A DNA stretch of 6,836 nucleotides from Promethearchaeota archaeon (GTDB taxonomy: Archaea > Asgardarchaeota > Odinarchaeia > Odinarchaeales > JBHLKK01), in assembly GCA_048939465.1 (NCBI GenBank), contig JBHLPL010000106.1, positions 1-6,836 on the forward strand, given 5' to 3'. The number at the start of each line of letters is the position of its first letter. The first letter of the stretch is position 1. Below, piece after piece: positions 1 through 6,836 of the stretch. The position numbers were made by a program, and so were the translations under genes. The notes under the pieces are model-generated. The model saw only the letters and a list, made by a program, of their open reading frames with translations, did not search any database and was not told the origin of the DNA.

Positions 1-2
1 AA

Positions 3-89
3 TGCCGGGAGCCGGACTCGAACCGGCACTCCCATTGCTGAGAAGCGGATTTTAAGTCCGCTATGTCTACCAAATTCCATCATCCCGGC
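3..89 (-). tRNA. tRNA-Leu, anticodon TAA (class II, long variable arm), 3' CCA not encoded
   Basis: Reverse complement folds as a full cloverleaf: acceptor GCCGGGA/TCCCGGC + discriminator A; D arm ATG-GAATTTGGTAGA-CAT; anticodon arm GCGGA-CTTAAAA-TCCGC; variable arm TCTCA-GCAA-TGGGA; T arm GCCGG-TTCGAGT-CCGGC. Followed by TT, not CCA. Confidence 0.97.
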
Positions 90-98
90 ATAATACTA

Positions 99-1172
99 TC
101 AAGGCTTTGCGGGCAACAAGATTCTCTTAGACCTCGGATGTGCTGGATTTGTGCGGTCCTGGTGATCATTATATTCTTTGAAGTTGAGCATGTCAACCGC
201 CCTATGCAACGTCTCACTAGATAAGTGGCTGTACCTCATCGTCATGACTATCGTCTTATGTCCTAGCAACGCCCTTATTTGCTGAAGGTCGATTCCTAGC
301 ATCGCTAGATGAGAAGCAAAGGTGTGTCTCAGGTCGTGGAACCGGAAATCGCTTATGTTTGCATTTCTCAAGGATCGTTCCCACGCGGTTTGTATGCTTC
401 TAATCGGCTTCCCGTGCTTACCAGAAAAAACATATCCGTGTGAGACTTCATGAGGCAGTTTGATCAAAGTTGTGTACAGAATATCATTGAAAGGAATGTG
501 TCGTGACTCGTGATTTTTTGAATCTCTCACCCTTATCAATCTCTTCGCTAAATCAACATCTGACCACCTTAGGTTTAGTATCTCACCTTTTCTCATCCCA
601 GTGTAGAGAGCAGTAATAACAACCGGTTTGATATGTTGGGGACAACAATAGAGCAGCCGTTTTATCTCATCGTCATTCAGGTAGCGAGTTCTCCCAGGTG
701 GTTCTCTAAGTTTCCTGACTGAACGCAGAGGGTTCTCGGTCAGATAACCCCAGTGAACCGCCTTGGTGAACATGTGCTTGATGCAGGAGATTTCCCGATT
801 AATAGTAGCAGGCTCAACCTTCATCTCTCTTCGGGTCACTATGTACTTCTCCATATCGTGTGCTTTGATCTCAGAAACAAGTTGGCCGGCAAAAGTACGT
901 AGCAGATTGTTGATGCTCGTTCTGTCTCGGCGAAGAGACTGGGCACGCTTGTGAGCCTTGGAGAAAACGAGGTATTCTTCGCATAGCTTTTCAAAGACCA
1001 TTGGCTTCATCAATGGAACCCCGAGGAACTTGTTCGCCGCAATTTGCGTCTTGATCTTTCTTTCGTATTCTTCAGCTTGTTTCTTCGAGGTCCCAATGAT
1101 TTCGCGTTTCCATTTTCCGTTTGGGAGGGAATAGCCTACGCCCCATTTCTTACCGCGTTGATAGACGCTCAT
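99..1172 (-). CDS. int: Tyrosine recombinase / phage integrase (357 aa)
   Basis: Full catalytic set R194 (TGMRKGE), K219, H279-x-x-R282 (HDLRH), H305 (LGH), Y314. N-terminal arm-binding-type segment (VYQRGKKWGVGY) and core-binding domain (PATINRE). SD-like AAGGGGG before the ATG. Confidence 0.97.
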   Translation of the reverse strand: MSVYQRGKKWGVGYSLPNGKWKREIIGTSKKQAEEYERKIKTQIAANKFLGVPLMKPMVFEKLCEEYLVFSKAHKRAQSLRRDRTSINNLLRTFAGQLVSEIKAHDMEKYIVTRREMKVEPATINREISCIKHMFTKAVHWGYLTENPLRSVRKLREPPGRTRYLNDDEIKRLLYCCPQHIKPVVITALYTGMRKGEILNLRWSDVDLAKRLIRVRDSKNHESRHIPFNDILYTTLIKLPHEVSHGYVFSGKHGKPIRSIQTAWERSLRNANISDFRFHDLRHTFASHLAMLGIDLQQIRALLGHKTIVMTMRYSHLSSETLHRAVDMLNFKEYNDHQDRTNPAHPRSKRILLPAKP

Positions 1173-1233: not shown

Positions 1234-1446
1234 TCATATGATTCGGCCGCTTTTTGACTTATGTATACTCTTCTTACTTATCCACTGTTCGATCGCAGAA
1301 ACCTCGAATCGGAGTAATCTGCCGAGTTTAACATGTGGAATGTACCCACGATGTTTCCAATCATAGATCGTTTTCGGCTTAACCTGTAGCAAACTAGCAA
1401 GTTGTTGTACATCCATGAATCGTTTGTTGTCGTTAGTCCTCAACAT
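1234..1446 (-). CDS. xis: Excisionase-like HTH DNA-binding protein (HTH_17/MerR-like fold, 70 aa)
   Basis: MDVQQLASLLQVKPKTIYDWKHRGYIPHVKLGRLLRF pattern typical of excisionase-family HTH proteins; SD AGGAG; directly upstream of int; start overlaps the rep stop. Confidence 0.88.
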   Translation of the reverse strand: MLRTNDNKRFMDVQQLASLLQVKPKTIYDWKHRGYIPHVKLGRLLRFEVSAIEQWISKKSIHKSKSGRII

Positions 1447-1903
1447 TGTGCTCTCCTATCACGCTCGACTTCGCACTGTCCTGTGATTTCTCCTCAGCCT
1501 CGCCGTGTTCTGAGGAGAGACCATGTAACGATTCTTTCATTTCTGAATGACTTTGTCTGCTCTTCAGTTTGTTTTGTCGCTGCCTGCGATATTCAGATTG
1601 GTACTTCTTCCAATTTGTCACGGTGATAATATTGTTGCTATCAACACTGATACGGCCTGTTATCTTTAAGCGTTCTTTGGTTTTACGCCATTCATCGATA
1701 ATGATATTTAGAATAGCCGCTATTTGATCATCCGTCAAAGCAACCTGGGAACTCAATTTGATTACACCATCATCACCGTAGGCACTGTCTCCAGCCAAGG
1801 CAATGATGTCGGCAAAAATGCCCCTCGTGGTTGGCGACTCATTTCGTAACGTGCCACGAAGCCACTTGTCTGTGTAGATCTTAATCCATGTCCTTCTACC
1901 CAT
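1433..1903 (-). CDS. Phage replisome organiser N-terminal-domain (Rep initiator-like winged-helix) protein, 156 aa
   Basis: N-terminal WIKI..DKW, RGIF.DII.LAG, G.I and I.VTNWKKYQ motifs followed by a basic RRQRQ helix, as in phage replisome organiser N-domains; strong SD AAAGGAGG. Confidence 0.75.
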   Translation of the reverse strand: MGRRTWIKIYTDKWLRGTLRNESPTTRGIFADIIALAGDSAYGDDGVIKLSSQVALTDDQIAAILNIIIDEWRKTKERLKITGRISVDSNNIITVTNWKKYQSEYRRQRQNKLKSRQSHSEMKESLHGLSSEHGEAEEKSQDSAKSSVIGEHNVED

Positions 1904-2771: not shown

Positions 2772-2817
2772 CCCCCCCAATTTACCCACCCCGGTCGATT
2801 TTGTGGGTACCCCCCCC
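2772..2817 (-). other. G-run element (G8..G4-T-G3..G7) with internal inverted repeat
   Basis: C7 at 2772-2778, C3/C4 at 2785-2792, C8 at 2810-2817; TACCCAC (2783-2789) / GTGGGTA (2803-2809) inverted repeat. Confidence 0.8.
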
Positions 2818-2960
2818 TGGTTACATGGTCGGCTGAGACCAAGAAAATTAGTAAACCCTGAAATATCAGCCTAAATAGCCTCATCTTGTATTCCGAATTT
2901 GCTGACACCCTTATTCTACAAGGTACAGACACACCTCCGGTAATAGGGGAGACTGCAGTT

Positions 2961-3129
2961 TTGTGACCATCATGGCTTGAGATCTGACTACTGATAACAA
3001 ACGTTATCGCAACTAAGACAGTCGTTTGATTCTCCGCCCAGGGCGGATTTCGGACACCAAGTCTCTCACGGCCATGACGGGGTACCATGGCCGGGTTTAT
3101 GACACCATGGCTTTGTGACACCAATGGCT
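2961..3129. repeat. Three 16-17 bp direct repeats TT(G/A)TGAC..ATGGCT with interspersed palindromes
   Basis: TTGTGACCATCATGGCT 2961-2977, TTATGACACCATGGCT 3097-3112, TTGTGACACCAATGGCT 3113-3129; palindromes 3033-3047 and 3069-3093. Confidence 0.7.
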
Positions 3130-3219: not shown

Positions 3220-3268
3220 ATGGTTGACAATAGATATTTCCCTATGGTTGACGATAGGTTGACAATGG
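3220..3268. repeat. Triple 14-bp direct repeat with GGTTGAC core
   Basis: ATGGTTGACAATAG 3220-3233, ATGGTTGACGATAG 3244-3257, TAGGTTGACAATGG 3255-3268. Confidence 0.85.
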
Positions 3269-3471: not shown

Positions 3472-4052
3472 CATCCGCCAACAGAATAGTCAACCGGCTG
3501 CTCAATTCATATACACACGGTAAGACATGCAACCTCACAAGGAGATATACTCCTTAGGAAAATCGGCCTGTTACAGAGCAAATGGTGAGGGGACAGAGGC
3601 ATTTTGAGGAGTGTATAATGATGAACAGTTCCGCGGTACACCGTCCCGAGTGCTCAAGGTTCGTTTTCCCACGGTAGGATGCTGCCCGATTGTTTATGTA
3701 CAAGCTGTTCAGTTTGTTGACCAAACATATGATTTCTAGAAAACATAGAGAAGTTGATTAGTTGAACAGCCGTGAACCTGTACGACACAGCCAGAGTTGA
3801 TCAGAAATTCTTATGCCTCAGTTGTTCTTAACATTAAACAACAAAAAACAGCAAACTGAATATCCTATAGGATATATCTTCTATGTTATTCTCTTTCTAT
3901 TGGAAGTGACAGAGCCGGTACATCATTGTTGCCACATTTGTCGCATCACAGATGACAAACGTGGTTGATCGTCTACTCACAGGCATCGTTTTTGCGAAGG
4001 TAACTAACATAAAGCAGAAGCCGAAAGGAATTCATCGCTGATTCTGACCAAC

Positions 4053-4120: not shown

Positions 4121-4311
4121 ATGCTGAGGATCACCAAGGAGTATAGTAAGGCTTCGTCTTTATTGACCTATTCGCGGGTATAGGAGGGTTCAGACTAGCA
4201 CTAGAGTCATTCGGTGCGAAATGCGTCTTCAGTTCTTAATGGAACAGACACGCACAACAAGTCTACGAAAGGAACTTCGGGGAAAAACCGGCTGGAGGGG
4301 AGGAATCTTAG
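4121..4311 (+). pseudogene. dcm: C5-cytosine DNA methyltransferase (M.HhaI-like) 5' remnant with frameshift, nonsense codon and truncation
   Basis: From 4159: FIDLFAGIGGFRLALESFGAKCVFSS*WNRHAQQVYERNFGEKPAG, closely following M.HhaI motifs I-II (FIDLFAGLGGFRLALESCGAECVYSNEWDKYAQEVYEMNFGEKPEG). TAA at 4237-4239 replaces the conserved Glu. The ATG at 4121 is one base out of frame (shift near 4148-4151). Similarity ends about 4296. Confidence 0.92.
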
Positions 4312-4399: not shown

Positions 4400-4427
4400 T
4401 TGACAATAACCCAGTTTTGACTATAGT
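4400..4427 (+). promoter_or_regulatory. sigma70-type promoter of the nuclease gene
   Basis: TTGACA-N16-TATAGT, 52 nt before the ATG. Confidence 0.75.
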
Positions 4428-5619: not shown

Positions 5620-5660
5620 CTGGAATACGACCCACCGAGCACCATTTCGACCAGATTGCG
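5620..5660 (+). repeat. 41-bp direct repeat, copy 1
   Basis: CTGGAATACGACCCACCGAGCACCATTTCGACCAGATTGCG; 37/41 identical to 6515-6555, last 29 bp identical. Confidence 0.97.
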
Positions 5661-5680
5661 ACTGTTAGGTTTGGCTAGTC

Positions 5681-5708
5681 TTGACTACGCGTGAGACACG
5701 CCTATGAT
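5681..5708 (+). promoter_or_regulatory. sigma70-type promoter of the HEPN gene
   Basis: TTGACT-N16-TATGAT; the spacer contains the palindrome GCGTG-AGA-CACGC; SD AAAAGGAGG lies before the ATG at 5777. Confidence 0.7.
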
Positions 5709-5776
5709 CTGGCAGGTATAAATTGAGAATGCATGCTTGATTAGCCAACAACGAAAGACTCGAAAAGGAGGACAGA

Positions 5777-6460
5777 ATGAAGTCATATGGTATAATGGCA
5801 GAACAAAAGTTCGCTGATTGGGAAAAATGGTTAAGTAATCTGTGGAAAGAGATTTATGAATTACATCGTCAGGTGAACATGTTTATTGGTCTTTGGAATT
5901 TTGCCAATGAGAACCCCCGGCGATTCGCACATACATACTTTAAAGATTGGCTTGCAAAAACCTATTGGGCGAGCTCTTCCTTAACCATAAGAAGATTAGT
6001 AGACAAGGATAATCGCAACTATTCGCTAATGCAGCTACTAGAGGATATCAAAGTGTTTCACGCGATAGTATCCTTGGATAGACTCAAGAAGCTATATCTA
6101 CGAGGCATACGTCAAAATGACGACGTTCTAAAGCGTATCGAGGAGAATGAAGCAACCAGGGATTTCCGTAAATATGAAGAAAAGGGGGATTTCTTGAATC
6201 CCTTCTCTGTTGAGCGAGATATCCAAAACATAAATGAAATCACTAAGCCTATCGTCAGAGCCGTAAATACTTACCTTGCTCATAATAGTAGAATCAAGAA
6301 ATACGATGTTCCTAGTTTGGCAAGGACAAAGGACTGTCTGACATTGTTCCGTAGTATCTACAAGAAATATCATCTCTTGATTCTTGGTCGTGTTGCCTTT
6401 ACCGATTTTCCAAAAAGTGTAGCTAGGAAAGAGGTGAATTCTATTTTCAAAAATAATTAG
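5777..6460 (+). CDS. HEPN-domain protein, AbiU2-like (227 aa), putative abortive-infection RNase
   Basis: All-helical; SSLTIRRLVDK....SLMQLL block and late RAVNTYLAH block match the AbiU2-type HEPN layout; strong SD. Confidence 0.72.
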   Translation: MKSYGIMAEQKFADWEKWLSNLWKEIYELHRQVNMFIGLWNFANENPRRFAHTYFKDWLAKTYWASSSLTIRRLVDKDNRNYSLMQLLEDIKVFHAIVSLDRLKKLYLRGIRQNDDVLKRIEENEATRDFRKYEEKGDFLNPFSVERDIQNINEITKPIVRAVNTYLAHNSRIKKYDVPSLARTKDCLTLFRSIYKKYHLLILGRVAFTDFPKSVARKEVNSIFKNN

Positions 6461-6514
6461 TCGACCAAACCAGACTTACTGTCATGAACTGCATTCTAAA
6501 TACCTTACTGCGTA

Positions 6515-6555
6515 CTGGACTACCCACCACCGAGCACCATTTCGACCAGATTGCG
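6515..6555 (+). repeat. 41-bp direct repeat, copy 2
   Basis: CTGGACTACCCACCACCGAGCACCATTTCGACCAGATTGCG. Confidence 0.97.
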
Positions 6556-6813: not shown

Positions 6814-6836
6814 TGCTCTGTTATCACAGATTAGTA

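Follow-up and report, generated by a model that had tools for sequence, protein, structure and literature searches.

Cis-mobilizable elements (CIMEs), which belong with the tandem accretion of integrative elements such as the ICESt1/ICESt3 family of Streptococcus, are flanked by the att site of a resident element's integrase. IMEX and pdif modules likewise carry no integrase of their own and have sites of about 28-30 bp, those of IMEX being dif-like repeats in direct orientation on either side of the module. The window analysed here is the whole 6836-nt contig C43 of an Asgard metagenome-assembled genome (MAG), and it holds a unit in which one gene of the HEPN_AbiU2 family lies between two co-oriented copies (R1 and R2) of a 41-nt direct repeat, R. 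This R unit, a module on an integrative island that is bounded by repeats and has no recombinase, is an arrangement of an already known kind. It resembles a CIME in being a segment without a recombinase, bounded by direct repeats with an exact core and imperfect arms, in or next to an integrase-bearing island; it differs from one in that R is related neither to the att of the island (the 5' half of tRNA-Leu) nor to the arm-type sites of the island, and in that the unit measures only 0.9 kb and has one gene. With IMEX and pdif modules it shares the absence of an integrase and the short direct repeats at its borders, but R has no 11-6-11 inverted arms and is not the dif site of the host.

AbiU2 is a HEPN abortive-infection family of predicted RNases that has been found among restriction-modification genes (Anantharaman et al. 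2013, PMC3710099), and a single-gene integron cassette of Vibrio mimicus that encodes a HEPN protein with an AbiU2 domain was reported to protect against T4 and T7 (bioRxiv 10.64898/2026.03.17.712381). The accretion of integrative elements is among the subjects reviewed in PMC5704250. Like the Vibrio cassette, the R unit is small, carries one defence gene, from the same Pfam family, and is bounded by a repeated site; in contrast to that cassette, R forms no attC hairpin, no IntI-type integrase or attI was recognised, and the HEPN gene apparently has its own promoter. Two sites are present, and no array was seen up to the contig end, 281 nt past R2; no third copy, even a degenerate one, accompanies them, and the integrase is of the lambda/phage type. 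The window protein is like other members of the AbiU2 family in its Pfam match above the cut-off, its invariant residues and the restriction-modification remnants nearby, whereas it is divergent in sequence (its own 90% cluster apart, full-length relatives reach at most 34% identity) and its gene lacks a Sel1-repeat partner gene.

A bacterial island at tRNA-Leu(TAA)

C43 is a bacterial contig that was mis-binned into the Asgard MAG, because its tRNA-Leu(TAA), the relatives of its integrase and the neighbours of those relatives are bacterial, and it should not be treated as Asgard archaeal DNA. The tRNA matched 114 of the 132 genomes of one bacterial class (the class containing GCA_049647125.1, G400; hereafter the host class) with identities of up to 98-99%, and gave no match in the six other genomes of the Asgard class to which the MAG is assigned; it is almost identical to the tRNA beside homologous integrases on the bacterial contigs L026 and L030, and blastn against E. 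coli gave no match. Relatives of the integrase at 45-64% identity number in the thousands, and some are labelled 'bacterium' or 'candidate division WOR-3 bacterium'; the best match of the integrase among 400 Asgard genomes reached 37%. The genes next to these relatives are bacterial and encode a sigma-54 activator, ThiC, HPr kinase and T9SS-tailed proteins. As the contig is bacterial, reading the HEPN unit in terms of sigma-70 and Shine-Dalgarno signals is legitimate.

The island runs from tRNA-Leu through the integrase gene (int), an HTH_17 gene, a Phage_rep_org_N gene and about 2.5 kb with few ORFs to a gene of 342 codons and the HEPN unit (Table 1), and homologous int-xis-rep islands occupy tRNA-Leu(TAA) in bacteria. 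In one sister island (L027) both borders are copies of a perfect direct repeat, 49 nt long, made up of the 5' part of the tRNA (66-114 and 10287-10335), and the island in genome G450 has an equivalent 42-nt repeat of the tRNA 5' part, its copies lying 35 kb apart. Integration in this island family thus takes place on the upstream side of tRNA-Leu(TAA), whose 5' half is duplicated as direct repeats of 42-49 nt, an unusual attachment geometry, and from the repeats in L027 and G450 it follows that the far end of the window island lies beyond position 6836. In the window the integrase gene abuts the 5' end of an intact tRNA-Leu(TAA), in mirror image to the usual arrangement at the 3' end of a tRNA. 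Partial extra copies of the tRNA-Leu 5' part are common to many host-class genomes. A 3618-nt contig from an independent assembly (Logan, run X2) reaches from int (509) across the tRNA and about 3.1 kb further, to the left of position 1; at its end is a further copy, 25 nt long, of tRNA positions 2-26 (window 65-89), which may be a second tRNA-Leu gene or a downstream att remnant.

No cargo was common to the window and the four genomes with a 98-99% identical tRNA or a fifth at 95%, and the ORF fragment at the right end had matches at chance level only. The 342-aa gene has relatives of at most 52% identity, none of them among 272 host-phylum genomes, and its D...ECK motif suggests a PD-(D/E)xK nuclease; next to the 52% homologue (L003:200-3832) are an HTH gene, a methylase of the N6/N4 type and a restriction enzyme of the BstXI type. 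A pseudogene fragment of a dcm-type methyltransferase, with motif I and an in-frame TAA (by eye), precedes the 342-aa gene at about 4150-4300. The region is a decaying defence-gene dump.

Table 1. Coordinates of the features of the window, with the basis of each call
Feature	Positions	Strand	Basis
tRNA-Leu(TAA), island attachment site, bacterial type	2-90	-	
Tyrosine integrase, lambda-type, with N-terminal arm-binding region	99-1172	-	profile search, Int_N
HTH_17 excisionase-like gene	1234-1446	-	profile search
Phage_rep_org_N replisome-organiser-like gene	1433-1903	-	profile search
Neighbouring cargo gene, 342 aa	4480-5508	+	no Pfam family; D...ECK motif by eye
R1, left copy of the 41-nt direct repeat R	5620-5660	+	repeat search; exact core 5632-5660
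Sigma-70-like promoter match, TTGACT-16-TATGAT	5681-5708	+	consensus match, 10/12; 20 nt right of R1
Shine-Dalgarno sequence GGAGG	5767-5771	+	read from the sequence; 5 nt before the ATG at 5777
HEPN_AbiU2-family gene, 227 aa, intact	5777-6460	+	Pfam PF18734, 42 bits, E 9e-11
R2, right copy of the direct repeat R	6515-6555	+	repeat search; exact core 6527-6555

The HEPN gene and its flanking repeats

An earlier sequence-only reading of this DNA had described a self-contained defence cassette in which a repeat, a promoter, a ribosome-binding site, a HEPN gene and a second copy of the repeat form an exact 895-bp unit, each copy of the repeat lying just downstream of a cargo gene. Its coordinates were recovered exactly: R1 and R2 are identical at 37 of 41 positions, share an exact core of 29 nt and start 895 bp apart, with R1 112 nt past the stop codon of the 342-aa ORF and R2 55 nt past that of the HEPN gene. 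No exact direct repeat in the window is longer than the core (the tandem, low-complexity tract at about 2470-2660 being left out of the statistic), and the pair is far beyond chance; 100 first-order shuffles gave longest exact repeats of 12.2 nt on average and 16 nt at most, and about 8e-11 repeated 29-mers are expected by chance. The mismatches are confined to one side, with 4 in the left 12 nt and 0 in the 29 nt of the core (p = 0.005), and an alignment of the two intergenic regions showed that the likeness ends sharply at the right edge (6555/6556) and fades leftward. The 854-bp interval from R1 to R2 is one complete unit of promoter-like site, Shine-Dalgarno sequence and intact HEPN gene; this gene stands alone between the copies, and the segment holds no recombinase or transfer genes.

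The identification of the gene as HEPN held: its profile score of 42 bits lies above the curated Pfam cut-off of 26.8 bits, and the protein keeps the family-invariant residues D148, A168-H169 and Y198 as well as the near-invariant R72-R73, so that, on profile score and conserved AH motif region, the assignment to HEPN_AbiU2 is sound. Family membership predicts an abortive-infection-type RNase, and a stand-alone defence role seems plausible because of this membership and of the protective single-gene cassette in Vibrio. The ribosome-binding site GGAGG was read directly from the sequence. The promoter of its own is a consensus match only (10/12), and such matches number 6 in the region against 6.0 in shuffled sequences, which is no enrichment.

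The closest relative of the HEPN protein (90% identical) is encoded on a 996-nt JGI contig (sample 3300042731), at 201-866, and its cluster holds no further member; the other nearest full-length relatives are 32-34% identical. A relative at 65% is truncated and lies beside a ROK gene, without R. A 409-nt contig from a sediment run of another study is 98.8% identical to 5784-6192; from this run, in which depth is only about 3, no sequence of the neighbouring gene aligned. Reads of run X4, sampled at about 1 in 100, did not cover the locus, and the depth of run X3 is too low to speak of absence.

Flanking repeats are not typical of AbiU2 genes: among nine AbiU2 loci of the host phylum, one (L035, G527:C2:33268-36759) has repeats beyond chance. 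There, 26-nt direct repeats at 1374-1399 and 2201-2226 (25/26 identical, spacing 827) bracket an AbiU2-family HEPN gene at 1441-2175. Each of these repeats is a piece of a C-terminal tail of the methylase-like kind (ID.LVYELYG), of which the locus has three; the third ends an ORF at 2772-3029, and a DUF3800-like gene comes next. BLASTP detected no similarity between the HEPN proteins of L035 and the window, and L035 is a parallel to the window unit, not a relative of it.

Distribution and structure of R

R occurs twice in its own MAG (1.96 Mb, 152 contigs; pattern search with up to 3 mismatches and blastn-short). With the same tolerance it was absent from 7 genomes of the Asgard class, and its 29-mer from the 132 genomes of the host class; nor was R found in IMG/VR, in JGI metagenome contigs, in plasmids (PLSDB) or in phages (INPHARED). 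Upstream of the neighbouring 342-aa cargo gene the window has no third copy, even a degenerate one. R is consequently not the dispersed REP- or MITE-like sequence against which the sequence-only reading had set its cassette: it is found only twice in all the collections searched, the two copies being in the MAG and none in the 132 host-class genomes, a set that covers the class of the true bacterial host but not its own genome.

The statement that R has neither the layout of attC nor the arms of dif was borne out. Both copies, on both strands, fold worse than shuffled sequences (z +0.46 to +1.82), and R therefore has no attC-like hairpin; repeat search and folding gave no inverted repeat or dyad at R, and R has no Rfam match. 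A Xer/dif-type site was rejected on the lack of 11-6-11 inverted arms and on the absence from the 132 host-class genomes, which also means that R is not the chromosomal dif.

Several other identities were considered and set aside. As the 3' end of a tRNA (ACCGAGC-A-CCA), R allows no T-arm to be drawn by eye, and no tRNA of the MAG matches it. To all appearance it is not coding sequence either: no ORF spans the modelled empty site; both copies are in frame with the gene upstream, yet 2-3 stops intervene, and we treat this as chance. A type III toxin-antitoxin system (ToxIN-like) is contradicted by the lack of a tandem array, by copies that lie 895 bp apart astride the gene and by the lack of an Rfam match. 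The word AAATATCCCCTCAGAAT to the left of R1 is not a recurring element, its matches being at chance level.

The sequence-only reading had also placed the unit on an integrase-bearing element. The tyrosine integrase is indeed there, but R is not recognisable as its site: a comparison of R with the att of the island and the arm sites next to int scored 14 against a null mean of 15, and the TGTGC arm-type pair near int (137-156) does not recur in the cargo region.

Origin of the repeat pair

We tentatively favour, as a reading about as probable as not or slightly less, that R1 and R2 are the recombination-junction scar of a Campbell-type insertion of the HEPN module. It is the most economical account, because it covers the exact core, the one-sided mismatches, the abrupt edge and the complete gene unit together. 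The donor, about 0.85 kb of DNA that was circular or could circularise, would have had the HEPN_AbiU2 gene, its promoter-like region and its ribosome-binding site, and would also have borne an imperfect copy of the sequence of about 41 nt that the recipient already had downstream of the nuclease-like cargo gene on the tRNA-Leu island. A single crossover within the 29 nt of perfect identity would then have left the sequence duplicated on either side of the insert, making R1 and R2 junctions of the attL/attR kind. The crossover may have been made by a site-specific recombinase supplied in trans or by homologous recombination of the host on the short identity; as R is unrelated to the att and arm-type sites of the resident integrase, no enzyme can be named. 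The module would now be a fixed, non-autonomous, single-gene defence unit whose HEPN protein would act as an abortive-infection-type RNase.

What was observed directly is the repeat, which is unique and asymmetric in shape, the intact gene that it brackets and the setting on a bacterial island; the insertion event, its direction and its enzyme are what we infer. The distribution of core and mismatches is as expected if the homology between donor and recipient was short and imperfect and the crossover fell within its perfect part. An insertion is further favoured by HEPN relatives that lie in other contexts (the 65% relative beside a ROK gene; the 98.8% fragment in another run, at a depth of about 3), by the uniqueness of R and the lack of a third copy in the window, by the decaying defence genes of the region, and by the precedent of single-gene HEPN AbiU2 units that travel as cassettes, as in the Vibrio integron. 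Against it, R has no inverted core-type sites of the sort usual for tyrosine recombinases. Contigs aligned to the window (about 8x) contained no empty allele and no circle junction, no second context for R or related locus carrying R was found in our searches, and at none of the few comparator loci is the HEPN unit seen to have been gained or lost at R. Of the two possibilities raised by the sequence-only reading, the scar of a circular intermediate thus agrees with the core, the asymmetry of the mismatches, the edge and the complete unit, though with no empty allele or circle in the aligned contigs, whereas a cassette array or an active site found nothing positive in its favour, be it a third copy, an empty allele, a circle junction or a related R-bearing locus.

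Two copies alone cannot tell such an insertion from accretion followed by deletion, which is the main rival. Here R would be the conserved tail at the cargo end of two related islands integrated in tandem at tRNA-Leu, an origin that we regard as unlikely, though worth serious weight; the further step, by which the older island would later have lost its int-xis-rep genes and att to leave the order cargo-R-cargo-R, we hold to be equally doubtful. Sister islands of the same integrase family show such an architecture with other elements. In L027 a co-oriented element of about 50 nt (TGGCACAAAT repeats and a hairpin) stands between cargo modules at 225-274, 1821-1870 and 3909-3958 and again next to int at 10220-10241, and the 35-kb G450 island has four or five copies of the TGGCACAAAT boundary element (in G450:C1, L056/L057, at 3661, 6587, 17056, 18321 and 27446, counted from base 35500). 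The TGGCACAAAT repeats of this element, a motif that the sister islands also have beside int, are often followed by a GGGGAGTGA...TCACTCCCC hairpin, and the elements suggest either tandem accretion or integrase-binding clusters at module borders; the TGGCACAAAT boundary element is different from R. The extra partial tRNA-Leu copies in many genomes of the class also speak for accretion, under which the fading left edge would reflect one-sided divergence and the abrupt right edge the endpoint of the deletion. Yet R contains no recognisable arm-type motif of the island and no att remnant, the 281 nt to the right of R2 contain no tRNA fragment, so that the island end predicted near R2 is not seen, and two diverged islands predict mismatches across all 41 nt, not 0/29 against 4/12.

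A different origin, in which R would be a cis element kept by selection, such as a protein-binding operator or a transcript site, and unrelated to DNA mobility, we judge improbable. Twenty-nine perfectly conserved nucleotides beside diverged flanks could mean constraint, and L027 repeats upstream regions of 60-170 nt before several cargo genes (families D2, D4 and D5); R, however, has no structure, dyad or Rfam match and is conserved in no relative, and its copies are placed differently with respect to promoters and gene starts, R1 ending 20 nt before the HEPN promoter-like site and R2 being followed by no gene start. We are slightly more reluctant to see in R an undescribed, hairpin-less cassette-capture site that loads single defence genes onto the tRNA-Leu islands of an uncultivated bacterial class, with more units past the contig end and circles of about 0.9 kb, a reading that is improbable as well. 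The co-oriented order of site, gene with its own promoter and site would suit it, as would a site that is neither attC nor dif and a contig that stops 281 nt past R2, and the 996-nt JGI contig is compatible, by arithmetic on its length only, with a circularly permuted unit of about 895 bp to which the assembler added an overlap of about 99-101 nt. Such a site is hard to reconcile with two copies in all searches, none of them upstream of the adjacent cargo gene, with the absence of R from the 132 host-class genomes, IMG/VR, JGI metagenome contigs, plasmids and phages, with aligned contigs that lack joints and with the lack of any recombinase linked to R. That the arrangement was made by the assembler, through a chimeric join of strain variants at a common short sequence, is extremely improbable. 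The contig is indeed short, metagenomic and of low depth (about 8x), and sits in a mis-binned MAG, but the order is the same in two assemblies: the independent Logan assembly (k=31) gave one colinear, unbranched contig (2817-6744/6753) that spans both copies, and contigs aligned to the window at about 8x depth showed no joints. Since the exact core of 29 nt is shorter than k, and than k-1, each junction is supported by unique words and the arrangement is not an artefact of the assembly graph.

If R is only a junction scar, as in the insertion that we favour, the locus would be another case of defence genes piling up on small integrative islands; if the same short, unstructured site bounded other genes, this would point to a gene-capture route without attC hairpins or dif sites.

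Some features of the window lie outside the R unit. At 2564-2647 a homopyrimidine tract with a 12-nt period, (TTTCTCCTTCTC)n, lies inside a minus-strand ORF, where it would encode an (EK)n run, and ATGCCA repeats at 2476-2513 adjoin it. An extended word resembling a -35 element, TTGACAAT (once TTGACGAT), occurs five times on the + strand, at 3224, 3248, 3259, 4400 and 6786. The fourth of these belongs to an 11/12 promoter match at 4400-4427, before the 342-aa gene, and the last lies 50 nt before the end of the contig, where a further + strand gene might start.
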